Made by a program: the position numbers and the translations under genes. A DNA stretch of 64,000 bases from Escherichia phage phT4A, in sequence record NC_055712.1. The stretch is one strand, 5' to 3'. Below the pieces are notes generated by a model. It worked only from the letters and a program-made list of their open reading frames with translations. It did not search any database and was not told the DNA's origin. Of the stretch, positions 34,038 through 61,656 are shown piece after piece; positions within the stretch are counted from its first letter, which is position 1, and every line of letters starts with the position of its first letter.

Positions 34038-34571
34038 CTATGCAAGATTTAATTTAGCAAATTCTCCAAAATGTTTTATCGCTTCCTGGTCGTATGCTTT
34101 TGCAGCCTCTAACTCATCACTATAAGAACCGATATGCTTAACCTTACCATCAACCATTATCTGTGCAATGTAACGTATTCCGGTTGGTTGATTGCGTACA
34201 CATACACCCTTGAATATGCTGGTTCCTTCCTTTCGCCGTTTCCTGTTCTGAGAGTTGCGGGATTGGTTCGCTTCGCGCAAGTTATCAATCCCGTCACCAG
34301 CCTCAACACCATTTTTGTGATCAATCACATCAGGTAGTTTTCCGGTCGCAACGTAGTAGATGATTCGATGGCGTAGATACCCTTTGCTTTTGAAATAAAC
34401 GCGTGTATATCCTCCTTTGATCTTCGAACCAACTTCCTTTCCGATCAAGTCGGAACGTTTATGCGATGTTCGTATAATCTTTCCTGTGTGGACATCAACA
34501 GAAACAGTTTTGAGGAATTCATCAATTCCTCTCTGTTCTTCTTCAACTGTTCTTAATCCATTATGTGACAT
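34038..34571 (-). CDS. HNH-AP2 homing endonuclease (paralog 3 of 4)
   Basis: VIDHKNG...DNLREANQ HNH core; AP2-like FKGVCVRNQPTGIRYIAQIMVDGKVKHIGSYSDELEAAKAYD; start overlaps the 3' end of the methyltransferase gene by 19 nt. Confidence 0.8.
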   Translation of the reverse strand: MSHNGLRTVEEEQRGIDEFLKTVSVDVHTGKIIRTSHKRSDLIGKEVGSKIKGGYTRVYFKSKGYLRHRIIYYVATGKLPDVIDHKNGVEAGDGIDNLREANQSRNSQNRKRRKEGTSIFKGVCVRNQPTGIRYIAQIMVDGKVKHIGSYSDELEAAKAYDQEAIKHFGEFAKLNLA

Positions 34572-35476
34572 AACGCCTTCTTAATTTGTTTTGCTATGGC
34601 TTCAATCACTGGGATGGAAACTGAATTCCCAGCCTGTTTGTAAGCCTGTATTTTGCTTTCAGGGATGATAAACGAATCCGGAAACCCTTGTAACCTAAAA
34701 CATTCTCGCGGGCTTAATCTTCTAGGGTTCTTACCTTCCTGTAATACCAGACATTGAACACCGTCCTTTCCATATTGGGCTGTTATCGTCCCAGTACACA
34801 CAGAATCCACCATAACGGCCTGATAACCAAACCCCTTGCCGTTTGCCTTGTTTCGTTCTTTACGCTCTCTAAAGCCCTTCCAGGCACGATCTGATATGGT
34901 GTATTGATCATTATCCGGTTCGAGAATGTCACCGACCCTTGTTGGGGTACGTGGAGGAACAGGAAAACTAAAGAACACTGGATCGCGAAAGCAGACAATA
35001 AACACACGCTCTCTTCGTTGAGGCAATCCAAAATCTTTTGTATTCATTACCTGATAATGGATATCGTATCCTTCGTCCTGTAACAGCCTGTAGATGGTTT
35101 TAAACGTGTTTCCCTTGTCATGGGTTAATAGCTGGGGAACATTCTCAAAGAACAGCACAGAGGGCTTTTTAGCCCGTATAATGCGGAGTATTTCAAAGAT
35201 GATAGTACCGCGAGGATCTAACATGCCCTGTTTTAAACCTGCTTTACTGAACGCCTGACAAGGAAACCCAGCTAACAGGATATCATGATCAGGCACATCA
35301 TTTTCATCAATGGCGAATATATCACCCTGAATATTTTCATCGCCCCAGTTATCAGCATATGTTTGTTGTGCATGTTTATCGATTTCAGACGTTAAAAGGC
35401 ATTCGACCCCGCCGAATGCCTTATCGAAACCGAGCCTCACGCCACCAACACCAGCGCAAAGGTCAATTATTTTCAT
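34553..35476 (-). CDS. DNA (cytosine-5)-methyltransferase
   Basis: C5-MTase motifs: I DLCAGVGG, IV GFPCQAFS, VI ENV, QxRxR-like QRRER. Confidence 0.85.
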   Translation of the reverse strand: MKIIDLCAGVGGVRLGFDKAFGGVECLLTSEIDKHAQQTYADNWGDENIQGDIFAIDENDVPDHDILLAGFPCQAFSKAGLKQGMLDPRGTIIFEILRIIRAKKPSVLFFENVPQLLTHDKGNTFKTIYRLLQDEGYDIHYQVMNTKDFGLPQRRERVFIVCFRDPVFFSFPVPPRTPTRVGDILEPDNDQYTISDRAWKGFRERKERNKANGKGFGYQAVMVDSVCTGTITAQYGKDGVQCLVLQEGKNPRRLSPRECFRLQGFPDSFIIPESKIQAYKQAGNSVSIPVIEAIAKQIKKALCHIMD

Positions 35477-54974: not shown

Positions 54975-55045
54975 GATTTCCTCCTTCGTTTCGATGTGTG
55001 TACAATAACAGATCAGGGTTATCGAGTTTTAGCAATTTGTGCTAA

Positions 55046-55324: not shown

Positions 55325-55362
55325 GATGATTTCCTTTTTGTCTGTTTCGTTTCTATGTGTGT

Positions 55363-55400
55363 AATATAACAAAACCCCTCACCATTGGCAAGGGGTTTTT
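55363..55400 (-). promoter_or_regulatory. stem-loop + sigma70 promoter cassette (PeSL-like)
   Basis: Minus strand: hairpin CCCCTTGCCAATGGTGAGGGG carrying TTGCCA, 17-nt spacer, TATATT, then conserved leader ACACACATAGAAACGAAACAG. Confidence 0.55.
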
Positions 55401-56250: not shown

Positions 56251-56649
56251 TCACATAGATTTCAAAATACGCAGAAGTGCGTTAGTAAAGATATCAGGAA
56301 CACAACCACCAAACAACTTATGATTCATCAGCGCTAATTTCATGCTGTGATTTTCAGTATATCGCCCGTTATGGATCCCCCAGGCAACGACATTACCAGG
56401 TTCATGAATAACTAAGTTAGTGAGAGTAACGGTCATGCGCTCTTTATCATTGATAGAGAATGAATAGCAGTAACCGGATCCGATGTCGCCGTAAAGGTTA
56501 AGGTCTTTCAATTTCCCTTGCTCATGCAAGCGTTTCATATGAACTGCACATGCATGATTAATGGTCATTTCGTCATCCCTAGCCCAATCATCAATACCAG
56601 AGGTATAACGAATATTGAAATAGTTAGTCAGTTCATTTGATACGCTCAT
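56251..56649 (-). CDS. hypothetical protein
   Basis: Start set at MSVSNELT with GTGAGG SD. Confidence 0.35.
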   Translation of the reverse strand: MSVSNELTNYFNIRYTSGIDDWARDDEMTINHACAVHMKRLHEQGKLKDLNLYGDIGSGYCYSFSINDKERMTVTLTNLVIHEPGNVVAWGIHNGRYTENHSMKLALMNHKLFGGCVPDIFTNALLRILKSM

Positions 56650-56827
56650 TAGAAACCTCACTTTTATAAAATTCTTTACCAGTCCCATTACAGCTACTGC
56701 ATTTGGGGGAACGGTTGCTATCATACCGCCCCGATCCGTTACATGCAACACATTTCCTTAATTTCCAGCCATACACGAACCTCATATAATAATCAGTTCG
56801 TGCGGCCTTGCGTTCGTGGAAATTCAT
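56633..56827 (-). CDS. small zinc-finger protein (DnaJ-type CxxCxGxG repeats)
   Basis: CVACNGSG and CSSCNGTG. Confidence 0.4.
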   Translation of the reverse strand: MNFHERKAARTDYYMRFVYGWKLRKCVACNGSGRYDSNRSPKCSSCNGTGKEFYKSEVSNERIK

Positions 56828-56967
56828 TCGATTTCTACCGAGTAACCTTCTTTACGTTTTTGGTCAGCGAAATTTCTTGCGCCTCCCCAATCGTAACAGG
56901 TTCTACGACCAACTTCTGAATCATTATGAAACCAAATCACGGTATATCGCTTTCCCATAATAACCTC

Positions 56968-57171
56968 TTAAACTTTGTTGTAAACCTGAACCAACCACAT
57001 TTCGATGTTAGGCGCGTAAGTAACGTTTACCTTATGCATTGTGCGGTATTTGTAAGCGGCTTTGTATGCATCGAGTTCAGTCGGAACACAGAAAGAGAAA
57101 CCGTTGTCATAGCGTTCTGCGTTAGAAACTTCACAACCAACTACAGCGGCAATATTTTTGTTCATGTTCAT
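56968..57171 (-). CDS. hypothetical protein
   Basis: Start set at MNMNKNIAAV downstream of a promoter cassette. Confidence 0.35.
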   Translation of the reverse strand: MNMNKNIAAVVGCEVSNAERYDNGFSFCVPTELDAYKAAYKYRTMHKVNVTYAPNIEMWLVQVYNKV

Positions 57172-57207
57172 GATGTTTTCCTTTCTCTGTTTCGTTTCGA
57201 TGTGTGT

Positions 57208-57245
57208 AATATAACAAAGCCCCTGCACTAATGCAAGGGCTTTTT
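57208..57245 (-). promoter_or_regulatory. stem-loop + sigma70 promoter cassette (PeSL-like)
   Basis: Minus strand: hairpin GCCCTTGCATTAGTGCAGGGGC carrying TTGCAT, 17-nt spacer, TATATT, then leader ACACACATCGAAACGAAACAG. Confidence 0.55.
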
Positions 57246-57247
57246 GA

Positions 57248-58162
57248 TTATTTTGGTAATTTTTCGATTGTTGCTTTCAACTCATTGATTTTATTAAAGA
57301 GTTCATCGCTATATTTCATCAACTCACTACGGCGTTTTTCGGCCCACTTGATCAGGAATTCAGGAGAATCTACACCATACGTGTAACCTTCTGCACTCAG
57401 TTGAATACGAGCACGGGAACCATAATCAACAGAACTTTGTTCAATGAGAAACTTAACCGCATCAAGCAGGGCTAAATCTTCATGACTTACCATGATTCCT
57501 TCTGCCTTTGGAAGATCCACAACTTCATCCTGAATGAGTTCACGGCGGGTTGTTTCTTCCAGTGTTTCATGATTCTGGATCATCGTTTCGACCGGATCCT
57601 TTGCCACGGCTGGTTTGTTTTCACCTACTTCTTCCAAAAACATCAAAATCCATCCAGGAATTTTAGTCCGGAAAGAACTTTGTACTTCACTGGTGCATGA
57701 ATTTCCCAGAATGTGGATCGCGTTACCATGCATATCAGCTTTATTGATATAGATAACGTTCTGCTGTTCCTGTCGGTTGCTACCATAAGAAAGGAAGCGG
57801 CGTAACGATGTGTTATGACCATACTTCCCTAAATCGATTTCAGCCAGGCAATCAATGATCCCACGGTTAGAAACCTTGTAACGCTTACCCTGTTTGAAAA
57901 ATAACGATTCTTCCAGGTGAGTAGGGGTAAACTCTTCATAAAGAACATAGAATTCTTTAGGAATTTTGCGCTGAACCAGACTCAGTTTACAATTATTAGA
58001 AGGAACAATAACAGAGTGAATGTTTCCTTCGGTATCACACATAGCTTGCATTACTTGCGGATAGTAAAGATGGTCTTTCTTGCAAGTATAGCTATGGATA
58101 CGACTCTGACGTTTTTTGAAGTACCATTTACCAGTTTCAAAAGGCGCTGTTGTAAAATTCAT
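57248..58162 (-). CDS. hypothetical protein
   Basis: 304-aa ORF. Confidence 0.4.
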   Translation of the reverse strand: MNFTTAPFETGKWYFKKRQSRIHSYTCKKDHLYYPQVMQAMCDTEGNIHSVIVPSNNCKLSLVQRKIPKEFYVLYEEFTPTHLEESLFFKQGKRYKVSNRGIIDCLAEIDLGKYGHNTSLRRFLSYGSNRQEQQNVIYINKADMHGNAIHILGNSCTSEVQSSFRTKIPGWILMFLEEVGENKPAVAKDPVETMIQNHETLEETTRRELIQDEVVDLPKAEGIMVSHEDLALLDAVKFLIEQSSVDYGSRARIQLSAEGYTYGVDSPEFLIKWAEKRRSELMKYSDELFNKINELKATIEKLPK

Positions 58163-58686
58163 TTTGCATTCTCATACATAGTTAAAATTGCTTGCATATG
58201 TTCCGGTGATTGTGGAACCCCTGCAAAGTTCACTTTCAAAAAGAAATTCAACCGATCTTTTATGTTGCACTCATCGAGTCCAAGCGCTGGCAATGAAATG
58301 TTTTCAAAAGCACGTTGTTCATGTCTTTCCATTTCACCCCAAAACAAACGGGAACCGTTAGGCATCGGTATTCCAATTTCATTGTTCCAGAATTTCATGA
58401 TAGTTGTCAAGCGTTGTTTTCCATCAATGACTTCTACCCATCGAGATTCGTTGAATTCACTATCAACCGCGATCGCAATGATACCGCAAGGAAACCCAGT
58501 AATCAAAGTCTTCATGAAAGCATCTTGCTCTTTCTGCTTCCACACGTAGGGCCGCTGATAGGACGGATTCAGATCCAGATCGTTGTTCTTGAACCAATGA
58601 ATGTAACTACCAACCATGATCGCATGATCGCGACTTTGGAAAGTTTTTAACTCACGAATACGGTTTCTTACAATTTCGTCTGTCAT
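58159..58686 (-). CDS. DUF262 (ParB/Srx-like, GmrSD N-terminal-type) domain protein
   Basis: YQRPYVW and IDGKQR match the DUF262 core; no C-terminal DUF1524/HNH part; start set at MTDEIV. Confidence 0.55.
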   Translation of the reverse strand: MTDEIVRNRIRELKTFQSRDHAIMVGSYIHWFKNNDLDLNPSYQRPYVWKQKEQDAFMKTLITGFPCGIIAIAVDSEFNESRWVEVIDGKQRLTTIMKFWNNEIGIPMPNGSRLFWGEMERHEQRAFENISLPALGLDECNIKDRLNFFLKVNFAGVPQSPEHMQAILTMYENAK

Positions 58687-59009
58687 TATAAAATCACCAT
58701 CCAGTATATAATCGTAATCATAACCGCTACAGTGAAACACATTGCAGCATACACACGCGCATTATGAACCTGTGTTTTCAATTCTGCGATCTCTTGATCC
58801 TTTTCGCTTTCAAACTCTTCGCGAGTACCATAATACCCAGGATCGTTAGCAGTTGCCAATCTAACCGCATCTTTTTCAACCAGCGTTGCGTAACCGCTTT
58901 TTATTTGTGTCGCCCCGTACCATCCACCCCGATCGTTGTTAATGATCAGATGATCGCCTTTTTCGTTATGCTTTGATTCGCCAACAACAATAACCCGCTT
59001 ACCATTCAT
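58686..59009 (-). CDS. hypothetical protein with C-terminal TM segment
   Basis: C-terminal hydrophobic AAMCFTVAVMITIIYWMVIL. Confidence 0.35.
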   Translation of the reverse strand: MNGKRVIVVGESKHNEKGDHLIINNDRGGWYGATQIKSGYATLVEKDAVRLATANDPGYYGTREEFESEKDQEIAELKTQVHNARVYAAMCFTVAVMITIIYWMVIL

Positions 59010-59037: not shown

Positions 59038-59295
59038 CTATTTCGCGTTCTTCTGTAGATAATCTAACAGATTTCCGCTTTGATGTAAATCCAAAACTTT
59101 AGAAAACTTCTCTGCGTTTCTTTCGTTTGTGAGTTCGTCGAAATGCCATACACCATCATCAGCTATTAACGCGCCAGGTGATGAACCTGTTTCTACATCA
59201 CGGGAAAGCGCAAGCCCCAGAGGGTGTAAGATTTCGCGGTTAATGCGCCAAACAAGGCCCATTTCAGATAGAGTAGTAAAATCGACGTATTTCAT
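59038..59295 (-). CDS. hypothetical protein
   Basis: ORF only. Confidence 0.35.
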   Translation of the reverse strand: MKYVDFTTLSEMGLVWRINREILHPLGLALSRDVETGSSPGALIADDGVWHFDELTNERNAEKFSKVLDLHQSGNLLDYLQKNAK

Positions 59296-60592: not shown

Positions 60593-60878
60593 AGATTTCT
60601 TCGAAATCCTCACAATCAGGCAAATACGTTTCACAGAAGGTGCAAAGCGTAAAGAATGCAGGTTGACGAATACCAGGATTATCCGGTAGATACATCCAGA
60701 AGGTGTTAGCAAACACGATGAATGTTTTCAGGTTTTCGGTGGTAATTTCGCTAACACCATCATACCCGGATTGATTGATCGCGCGTTGCAGTGGCACCTC
60801 GTACTGTTCGCAATAGTCGGCATAATGATCGCTTGTTACAAGGCCATTAGCCATTTTAATCAAATCGACGATTTTCAT
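60585..60878 (-). CDS. hypothetical protein
   Basis: ORF only. Confidence 0.35.
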   Translation of the reverse strand: MKIVDLIKMANGLVTSDHYADYCEQYEVPLQRAINQSGYDGVSEITTENLKTFIVFANTFWMYLPDNPGIRQPAFFTLCTFCETYLPDCEDFEEIYG

Positions 60879-61267
60879 GATTTTACATATTCCACTTTAA
60901 CAGGTTTTGCAACAAATTTATCTTTGGTGCGCCCATGACCATTACACAGGTCACATTCTTTGTTGAAATCTTTCATATCTTCGACCCATCCAGAATCTGG
61001 CAACCCAGACGGATATGCGTTATAACGAATGGTTTCATAACCTTTTCCGTTGCATTTCGGGCAAACATGAGGACGTTCTTTTTTAGCAGACTCTGCCAGT
61101 TCGCGAAGGGTGGTAGAACTACCATAAGCCCGACACATGTTTTCAAAGTCTTTTAAAGTCATTCTATAAACATCAATGACGTTATATTTTTTGCCGGATG
61201 GTTTAGCCATAATATATTTCTCACTTAAAGAATTTTTTGATGAAAGAGATAGCAAGGCCGATACCAA
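60875..61267 (-). CDS. zinc-finger protein (DnaJ-type CxxCxGxG repeats)
   Basis: CPKCNGKG and CDLCNGHG. Confidence 0.4.
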   Translation of the reverse strand: MVSALLSLSSKNSLSEKYIMAKPSGKKYNVIDVYRMTLKDFENMCRAYGSSTTLRELAESAKKERPHVCPKCNGKGYETIRYNAYPSGLPDSGWVEDMKDFNKECDLCNGHGRTKDKFVAKPVKVEYVKS

Positions 61268-61618: not shown

Positions 61619-61650
61619 AATATAACAAAGCCCCTGCACGAATGCAAGGG
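61619..61650 (-). promoter_or_regulatory. stem-loop + sigma70 promoter cassette (PeSL-like)
   Basis: Minus strand: hairpin GCCCTTGCATTCGTGCAGGGGC carrying TTGCAT, 17-nt spacer, TATATT. Confidence 0.55.
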
Positions 61651-61656
61651 CTTTTT

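Follow-up and report, generated by a model that had tools for sequence, protein, structure and literature searches.

A minimal DUF262 module in phage phT4A

What does a phage do with the sensing domain of a restriction system when no nuclease is attached to it? The question is raised by a gene in a 64,000-nucleotide stretch of Escherichia phage phT4A (sequence record NC_055712.1; this whole stretch is called the window). The gene runs on the minus strand from an ATG at 58686 to a TGA at 58159-58161, and its 175-amino-acid (aa) product had been taken, in a preliminary description, for a stand-alone ParB/Srx-like DUF262 module because of its YQRPYVW and IDGKQR motifs. That identification is borne out: both motifs are present, a profile search matched Pfam GmrSD_N (PF03235, formerly DUF262) above the gathering threshold (E = 7.1e-19; 69.1 bits against a cut-off of 33.2), and a structural model has the corresponding fold. 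The gene and its motifs are placed as follows.

58159..58686, minus strand: DUF262 gene, 175 aa, coordinates including the stop codon (open reading frame [ORF] call, Pfam, PHROG, model)
58540..58560, minus strand: motif I (QRxxxW), here YQRPYVW, residues 43-49 (translation and alignment)
58411..58428, minus strand: motif II (DGxQR), here IDGKQR, residues 87-92, the predicted nucleotide-phosphate-binding center (translation and alignment)
58198..58242, minus strand: motif III (FxxxN) with a clade-specific extension, FLKVNFAGVPQSPEH, residues 149-163 (translation and alignment)

The Pfam score, the motifs, and the predicted fold all place the protein in the DUF262/ParB-DUF262 family, and it is virtually certain that it constitutes a minimal ParB-DUF262 module of the ParB/Srx fold. 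The motifs are those defined for the family (PMC12065111), with the role of motif II as published (PMC12065111, PMC10952713); the core of motif III is FLKVN, residues 149-153. The AlphaFold2 model, built with 23 homologs as input, has a predicted local distance difference test score (pLDDT) of 89 and a predicted template modeling score of 0.83. Structure searches with its ParB/Srx fold also return sulfiredoxin (Srx), SerK, and SbnI, and a family-profile search of PDB sequences matched DUF262 defense proteins alone. GmrSD_N, the sole Pfam match, aligns locally over profile positions 4-78 of 199, and the alignment ends at position 78 since the domain is present in a compact, not a truncated, form. 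PHROG 1583, a profile of 417 positions, is matched at 3-178 (1e-58).

Only one helix (residues 161-173) follows motif III in the model, and the chain ends directly after the domain. No fused DUF1524/HNH nuclease or toxin is present in the 175-aa protein, and no ParBDB-type helical DNA-binding domain was found after the DUF262 domain, either in the model or in alignments to long relatives, which end with the ParB-DUF262 domain.

Conservation of the short form

Homologs of about 170 aa were detected by tblastn in 298 phage records. The carriers include Slopekvirus, Pseudotevenvirus (RB16, Lw1, and Cronobacter, Citrobacter, and Enterobacter phages; 77-80% identity), Krischvirus (the RB49 group; about 35%), Henunavirus, Pectobacterium phage POP12, Pantoea phage Phynn, Vequintavirinae-type phages (Erwinia phage pEp_SNUABM_01), the temperate Salmonella phage ST64B (gene sb33), and Vibrio and Moraxella phages. 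A search of 5.8 billion proteins yielded some 25 clusters of 167-177 aa, which align to the full length of the query with 39-99% identity. Nearly all records annotate the product as a hypothetical protein; a few call it a "DUF262 domain-containing protein," "ParB-like partition protein," "chromosome partitioning protein," or "DefenseFinder protein."

The invariant positions in an alignment of 23 sequences concentrate in the three motif regions: Y43, Q44, R45, Y47, V48, and W49 around motif I; E85, V86, D88, G89, Q91, R92, T94, and T95 around motif II, with K90 nearly so; and F149, N153, F154, G156, Q159, S160, and H163 around motif III. Seven more invariant residues, among them M1, Q54, P66, and I104, lie outside the motifs. 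Comparison of the gene with its RB16 counterpart gave a pN of 0.135 against a pS of 0.79, at which synonymous sites are saturated; selection on the gene is strongly purifying. In KP15, the gene is 100% identical at the protein level. Judging from these residues, the nucleotide pocket is very probably competent.

Partial alignments to Pfam and PHROG profiles of the kind described above are what the decaying N-terminal fragment of a GmrSD- or NsnA-type gene would also give, and the GenBank labels that mention partitioning would, taken at face value, make the protein a ParB. Both readings are vanishingly improbable, being ruled out by conservation and architecture. A decayed fragment is excluded because the length of about 170 aa, the motif residues, and purifying selection are conserved, in hundreds of phages of different families; moreover, the third motif and the C-terminal helix complete the domain, and the PADLOC NsnA profile aligns to the whole of it (residues 17-165). 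The partition reading is contradicted by a single-domain protein with neither a helix-turn-helix (HTH) nor a dimerization domain, by the lack of a ParA-like gene among the scanned neighboring ORFs (parS sites were not searched for), and by the lytic, T4-like character of the group.

Relationship to DUF262 defense systems

DUF262 domains bind and hydrolyze nucleoside triphosphates (NTPs), sense modified DNA, and switch on attached nucleases in GmrSD/BrxU and SspE, and Menshen and Dazbog cannot do without them (PMC10952713, PMC12065111). One E. coli system depends on a partner protein that resembles GmrS but has no nuclease (PMC12373910).

Among defense profiles, Menshen NsnA matches best (3e-18; residues 17-165 against positions 45-196 of 385), followed by PD-T4-2_A (1.7e-13; residues 32-102 against positions 47-114 of 363) and a "REase_II" model, with GmrSD-like models (Orf5, HEC-05/06, SspE) far behind at 1e-6 or worse. 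The order NsnA, PD-T4-2_A, and, at a distance, GmrSD-like models also holds for other clade members and for the nearest long relatives, and the longer library proteins that lie nearest to the phage protein resemble NsnA from end to end. The type "GmrSD N-terminal," under which the protein was originally described, is thus the name of the Pfam family and not the closest kinship, since the NsnA and PD-T4-2_A profiles score best.

Although it resembles NsnA in the QRxxxW, DGxQR, and FxxxN motifs and in the whole-domain alignment, the phage protein cannot be classed as Menshen NsnA: the ParBDB domain is missing, and so are NsnB and NsnC as neighbors. NsnA carries a ParBDB DNA-binding half and an N-terminal DNA-binding module, both lacking in the phage protein, whose match ends at position 196 of 385, and NsnA sits in defense islands, whereas the phage protein is encoded by phages. 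Neither an NsnB ABC-ATPase nor an NsnC effector was found among the neighbors scanned with Pfam, and a PADLOC scan, confined to the downstream 304-aa ORF, gave no match. With PD-T4-2 protein A the phage protein shares the state of a DUF262 protein unpaired with a DUF1524 nuclease, but the remainder of protein A and the partner gene are absent from the phage locus, and the phage protein is neither PD-T4-2 protein A nor a partition ParB.

GmrSD/BrxU, as well as the two-gene GmrS1 and GmrSD2 of E. coli ECOR17, have a DUF1524/HNH domain and a middle helical domain; because it lacks both, the phage protein is not a GmrSD-family restriction enzyme. The phosphorothioate-sensing DUF262 nucleases SspE and DndI and the ParB-like DndB and DpdB are 560-800 aa long with DNA-binding and nuclease domains, or belong to dnd or dpd operons, and none of these features occurs in the phage protein. 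PadC, sulfiredoxin, and the ParB N-terminal CTPase domain lack the DUF262 motif set, and by sequence the phage protein groups with DUF262 and not with them; further, ParB depends on an HTH domain and on parS, and the substrate of Srx is peroxiredoxin.

The protein is best regarded as a known domain family in a new architecture: a minimal phage-borne ParB-DUF262 that heads a small conserved cassette in T4-like phages. Identification of the domain is routine and is already found in some database records; it is less routine that hundreds of phages keep a bare sensor module under strong selection, that its kin are Menshen and PD-T4-2 and not GmrSD, and that its conserved neighbors lack a nuclease.

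A conserved downstream gene

The DUF262 TGA overlaps, as ATGA, the ATG of the next ORF on the same strand.

57248..58162, minus strand: 304-aa ORF, translationally coupled, downstream of DUF262 (ORF call, homolog neighborhoods)
57251..57520, minus strand: C-terminal module of the 304-aa protein, residues 215-304 (...EDLALLDAVKFLIEQ...GYTYG...LPK) (blastp, hidden Markov model [HMM], PHROG 15764)

The 304-aa protein consists of a basic, beta-rich N-terminal region, an acidic linker, and a conserved helical C-terminal module. The suggestion that this ORF might hide a cryptic DUF1524/HNH fold found no support: searches of Pfam, PADLOC, NCBIfam, and PDB profiles returned no match to it, with no HNH/DUF1524, nuclease, toxin, or ATPase signal. 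Its predicted model is poor (pLDDT 64).

The ORF does have relatives beside other DUF262 genes. RB16p167 (102 aa), which overlaps the end of the RB16 DUF262 gene, is homologous to the C-terminal 90 residues of the 304-aa protein (blastp, 6e-10). Full-length homologs (266-328 aa) lie just downstream of DUF262 in Yersinia phage JC221, Pantoea phage Phynn, and three metagenomic T4-like lineages, whose DUF262 proteins are 44-73% identical to the 175-aa protein, and the C-terminal module is also common to the C termini of the JC221, Phynn, and metagenomic homologs. The family, in which a variable N-terminal part is joined to a constant C-terminal module, is the neighbor of DUF262 in at least seven T4-like lineages, and a profile search found it confined to T4-like phages of about 177-180 kb. 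In most of these lineages, those of JC221, Phynn, and the three metagenomic phages, a multi-pass membrane protein of about 150 aa is encoded between DUF262 and the 304-aa homolog, and in POP12, too, it has this position. The resulting cassette of overlapping genes (DUF262, membrane protein, 304-aa family) is present in at least five T4-like lineages. Hence, the protein does stand alone as a separate short polypeptide, but not as a gene, the 304-aa ORF being its conserved neighbor in several T4-like lineages. A functional partnership between the two proteins is plausible, if a little short of probable.

Such a cassette could be a defense carried by the phage. DUF262 would then sense foreign or modified DNA, such as the hydroxymethylcytosine (hmC) of competing T-even phages, or satellites, and would signal to downstream effectors, namely the membrane protein of most lineages and the 304-aa protein, in an arrangement resembling a split, nuclease-less Menshen or PD-T4-2. 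All characterized DUF262 relatives are defense sensors, automated pipelines have already applied the label "DefenseFinder protein," and the cassette's recurrence, its overlapping genes, and the constant C-terminal module behind a changing N-terminal part are in keeping with this exclusion function. The carrier genera Slopekvirus (PMC5219037) and Krischvirus (PMC13390438) are reported to be without the known hmC and glycosylation genes, so that hmC DNA would be "non-self" to them. Counting against exclusion, neither the 304-aa protein nor the other neighbors have a recognizable nuclease, toxin, or ATPase domain; the sensor lacks the ParBDB DNA-binding domain that goes with it in every known system; the window has no gene for the membrane protein; and other phage families with the same DUF262 clade lack the cassette. 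On balance, exclusion is unlikely.

The membrane-protein genes were located at L018:1304-1768, L023:3501-3956, L024:3513-3968, L025:3525-3986, and L027:3510-3980 of the retrieved homolog loci, and no copy occurs in the 64-kb window. Their products share an N-terminal WHYR-x-N-x-W...LC-x-YFWF pattern, hydrophobic segments, and a C-terminal KAKK-x-K-x-CP-x-I-x-F-x-D, with no Pfam match on record. In POP12 (MT560058.1), a single 162-aa open frame (L006:3016-3501, plus strand) matches the family (HMM, 8e-25); the same stretch is annotated with an opposite-strand "leupaxin isoform X5" coding sequence (CDS) and a 62-aa CDS, probably a misannotation.

Two further signals in the 304-aa protein were sub-significant. 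The N-terminal region contains two weakly similar units, each starting F-x-x-G-K-W/R-Y, and the family HMM weakly matches T4 GoF (E = 0.003 among a few thousand ORFs) through two short collinear segments, an N-terminal F-E-x-N/G-K-W-Y motif and an acidic FLEEV-like stretch, in the same order. The hhalign comparison of the family with GoF was not significant (probability of 6% or less). GoF, at 141 aa, lacks the conserved C-terminal module, and a "goF" label appears on the 304-aa ortholog in one record, PP889503.

A wider phage-borne clade

A profile search of a representative library of 1.84 billion proteins yielded 14,857 hits at E < 1e-3, 32 of them at E < 1e-30. Among the best 150 representatives, 49 are 150-200 aa and 70 are 240-300 aa long. 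Domain position was inspected in the 65 representatives of 240-300 aa in which motif I lies beyond residue 110, and in these the DUF262 domain is at the C-terminal end. The longer relatives (about 250-290 aa; for example, P0026-P0032, P0084, P0089, and P0092) carry some 100 N-terminal residues with a small beta-barrel-like signature, F-x-VGD-x-V...V-x-E-V-L-x-DGKIY, that matches no Pfam family; hhalign found no homology between this extension and the 304-aa ORF. No close relative has a helical ParBDB domain or a nuclease after the DUF262 domain. The 175-aa protein is therefore a member of a phage-borne clade in which the domain ends the protein and which comes in two forms, one of about 170 aa and one of about 250-290 aa with an N-terminal small beta-barrel.

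An N..GVPQS..H-type string recurs in 58 of the 150 best representatives. Two proteins, P0093 (368 aa) and P0101 (357 aa), are tandem double-DUF262 forms, much rarer than the N-terminal-extension type but consistent with a domain that works as a dimer. All clade members with a checkable source are on phages or prophage-like contigs, and the two longer relatives with inspectable contigs, one of 233 kb, are surrounded by many small unannotated ORFs. Short and long DUF262 proteins are common among viral structure predictions, those from giant viruses included.

DNA methylation and modification

The modified DNA that DUF262 systems recognize has a possible counterpart in the window itself.

34553..35476, minus strand: canonical C5-cytosine DNA methyltransferase, 307 aa, with a PCQAFS motif (motif scan; Pfam DNA_methylase, 3e-94), 23 kb from the DUF262 gene

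According to PMC5219037, Slopekvirus phages encode Dcm and Dam but lack genes for a hydroxymethylase or a glycosyltransferase, and for this reason glucosyl-hmC, the classical GmrSD target, is not the phage's own DNA chemistry. BrxU-type enzymes are reported to act on 5-methylcytosine (5mC) DNA (review PMC10952713), and BrxU is broadly promiscuous toward cytosine modifications (PMC13390438). Directly after the methylase, and overlapping it, comes a 177-aa HNH_3 endonuclease ORF whose product is probably of the homing type (34038-35476 for the pair, minus strand).

Might the DUF262 protein instead serve modification, as an accessory NTPase or kinase-like step of a phage pathway, possibly the one behind the unexplained cytosine modification reported for pseudo-T-even phages? 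ParB-like proteins do participate in DNA modification: DpdB supports DpdA, and DndB regulates phosphorothioation. In Krischvirus, DUF262 is the third gene of an overlapping operon, after a C5-methylase-like and a zinc-ribbon gene, and in Erwinia phage pEp_SNUABM_01 a methyltransferase lies four genes upstream. The DNA modification of Slopekvirus KP27 is unexplained (PMC5219037), and Krischvirus SAP is reported to be fully cytosine-modified, with "glucosylated methyl-dC," whereas the 99.96%-identical TB34 is unmodified and single-nucleotide polymorphism analysis gave no lead (PMC13390438).

Nevertheless, the linkage of DUF262 to methyltransferases is weak: in the window the methylase is 23 kb away, the Krischvirus and Erwinia methylase-like genes are not homologous to one another, and the Krischvirus type, with 1577 phage records to the 298 of DUF262, shows no specific co-distribution with it. 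No modification genes lie near the homolog in ST64B and other carriers. In addition, KP15 DNA is reported to be cuttable, yet its gene encodes an identical protein, and the SAP and TB34 stretches over the gene are identical except for a 79-bp duplication at the 3' end. Because the gene is essentially the same in phages with and without a modification phenotype, the idea is weakened, and an accessory role in modification is improbable.

The duplication in vB_Eco_SAP (OZ034687.1; L021:3504-3582) is a perfect 79-bp tandem repeat relative to vB_Eco_TB34 (OX001802.1; L022). It begins in the last codons of the DUF262 homolog and includes a promoter-like element with an internal hairpin (TTGACA-N17-CATAAT). 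The alignments of TB34 and of the remaining listed Krischvirus genomes are shorter by about 79 bp, as expected of a single copy (TB34 alone was aligned directly), and this indel accounts for 79 of the 112 bp by which SAP and TB34 differ in length.

Possible roles

Taken as a whole, the observations are best explained, and still only tentatively, by a conserved minimal NTP-gated ParB-DUF262 switch that acts through partners in a conflict over modified DNA. Motifs I-III would bind and probably hydrolyze NTP, and the nucleotide state may gate self-association or partner binding, by analogy with other ParB-family proteins. Because this DUF262 protein has no effector of its own, its output must pass through other proteins. 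The best candidate for a partner in phT4A would be the translationally coupled 304-aa protein, whose C-terminal module stays beside DUF262 across T4-like lineages. The favored role would lie in phage-host or phage-phage conflict, a reading supported by the phage's C5 methylase, by DUF262 systems that sense modified DNA, by the acceptance of 5mC by BrxU (PMC10952713, PMC13390438), and by the location of the gene in an accessory region.

Within such a conflict, we speculatively favor counter-defense over exclusion. The protein could compete with or poison host ParB-DUF262 sensors that attack the phage's own C5-methylated DNA, a role that is possible but doubtful; an inert decoy is disfavored because the residues of the nucleotide pocket are strictly conserved. 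We know of no earlier ParB-fold anti-defense protein. It is a somewhat unlikely, bolder proposal that the phage minimal ParB-DUF262 clade forms a new counter-defense class, in which a nucleotide-gated copy of the sensor, alone or with the 304-aa partner, would compete with or poison the modification-sensing immune proteins of BrxU/GmrSD, Dazbog, Menshen, or PD-T4-2.

Several points weigh against the conflict switch. NTP binding, hydrolysis, and dimerization by the DUF262 protein are predicted solely from homology, and its mildly acidic pI (about 6.1) gives no hint of DNA binding. A full-text literature search found no study of a phage stand-alone DUF262 or of any clade member, and the text of the EVADES compendium describes no ParB-like anti-defense protein. 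The 304-aa partner and the cassette are absent in Krischvirus, Vequintavirinae-like phages, and ST64B, and, since the phages that carry them are all T4-like relatives whose gene order is shared, the linkage may reflect descent and not function. Finally, the catalytic residues are kept across very different phages, aquatic jumbo-phage contigs included, which fits a host-independent enzyme at least as well as a decoy aimed at one host.

That enzyme would be a stand-alone member of the ParB/Srx superfamily acting on nucleotides, small molecules, or proteins (an NTPase or phosphotransferase like sulfiredoxin, SerK, or SbnI) and contributing to host takeover or remodeling of the nucleotide pool, not to DNA sensing. 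Besides the retrieval of Srx, SerK, and SbnI by the fold search and the strict retention, across very diverse phages, of the pocket residues and an extra invariant Q-S-x-x-H, the lack of a DNA-binding domain accords with this view, as do the neighbors: the nudE Nudix hydrolase, a dNMP kinase, and thymidine kinase in Slopekvirus and a pyrophosphatase in Phynn. We consider it rather unlikely, more so than exclusion. Roles other than counter-defense, exclusion, an enzyme of this kind, or an accessory of modification hold an appreciable minority share.

DUF262 domains form the sensing and NTPase heads of GmrSD/BrxU, SspE, DndI, Menshen, Dazbog, and PD-T4-2, and every study of them in these systems has dealt with the domain joined to DNA-binding and effector parts. 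In the phages, by contrast, the module occurs bare and under strong selection, in hundreds of members of unrelated families, with no function reported. For now this is a well-defined gene and not a new kind of system. If its product is a counter-defense or exclusion factor, it bears on host-range prediction for Slopekvirus, which are candidates for Klebsiella phage therapy, and offers a compact, 20-kDa model of the ParB-DUF262 nucleotide switch. Were counter-defense true, cytosine-methylating phages would escape type IV-like attack by means of a captured immune sensor that the virus turns on its source. An enzyme or a modification accessory could bear on the unexplained modifications of KP27 and Krischvirus SAP.

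Neighboring genes and transcription signals

The window comes from a Slopekvirus (Straboviridae; KP15/KP27/Matisse-like): its 4 kb around the DUF262 gene are 99% identical to Klebsiella phages of that genus. Coverage of these 4 kb reaches 80% or more in 106 records, with vB_KM5a1-KLB25 as the best match. One annotated relative has the gene on the minus strand, flanked by a dNMP kinase/tail-fiber chaperone/RNA ligase group and by an endolysin/PhoH/thymidine kinase group. We take this locus to correspond to the variable accessory region of T4 between genes 1/57A and e/tk. Recognizable neighbors are a NUDIX hydrolase (nudE), a DUF7415 protein, and two small DnaJ-type zinc-finger proteins; no nuclease domain was found in the other ORFs within about 3 kb of the DUF262 gene.

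58686..59009, minus strand: upstream 107-aa ORF with a hydrophobic C-terminal segment (PHROG 7472; 73% identical to RB16p169)
57191..57243, minus strand: G+C-rich hairpin, then a T run, between TTGCAT (-35-like) and TATATT (-10-like), with conserved leader ACACACATCGAAACGAAAC (terminator scan, repeat scan)
61627..61654, minus strand: matching upstream hairpin/promoter-like element (terminator scan)

The stop codon of the 107-aa ORF shares one base with the DUF262 ATG. This ORF adjoins DUF262 in Slopekvirus and Pseudotevenvirus only, and it was rejected as a conserved upstream partner, the upstream genes in Krischvirus, Henunavirus, POP12, and ST64B being unrelated.

The hairpin of the 57191..57243 element occupies 57243-57216. 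Because the element comes directly after the 304-aa ORF, it reads as the end of one transcription unit and the start of the next. Together with the matching upstream element, it brackets a minus-strand unit of about 4.4 kb that comprises small ORFs, nudE, a 127-aa ORF, DUF7415, the 107-aa ORF, DUF262, and the 304-aa ORF, the last two genes being DUF262 and the 304-aa ORF. A 26-nucleotide motif is present in 3 copies against 0 expected, and the repeated element, lying between early genes, appears to act as terminator and as promoter. Judging from its genomic location and these promoter-like signals, the DUF262 gene may be expressed early. Further minus-strand copies occur at 55346-55399 and, as leader only, at 54985-55010, with the hexamer variants TTGCAT/TTGCCA and TATATT; a conserved leader, ACACACATCGAAACGAA, and a ribosome-binding site follow the hairpin element. 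An analogous promoter with an internal hairpin follows the Krischvirus homolog.

The 85-aa ORF at 59038-59295 (minus strand) matches Pfam DUF7415 (4e-12) and not Pfam Acb1, although Roth phage records label it "anti-CBASS protein acb1." It aligns to only the C-terminal third of several PHROG profiles of 134-157 positions, and in a sample of 40 from the 813 records with a homolog, most annotate a hypothetical protein and none Acb1. The label, which would have suggested an anti-defense island, looks unsupported and was not used as evidence.

Downstream of the unit, two CDSs are annotated on the plus strand at 56743-57231 in Roth22 and Squirrel_ER27; these calls are probably spurious. The minus-strand ORF at 56968-57228 (probably 67 aa, from an internal ATG near 57170) is orthologous to RB16p166 and matches PHROG 7982 (1e-47). 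The two DnaJ-type CXXCXGXG zinc-finger proteins are encoded on the minus strand at 60875-61210 and 56633-56827; their Pfam matches, 2e-5 and 3e-5, fall short of the gathering score. One lies in the early unit that contains DUF262 and the other in the next unit.

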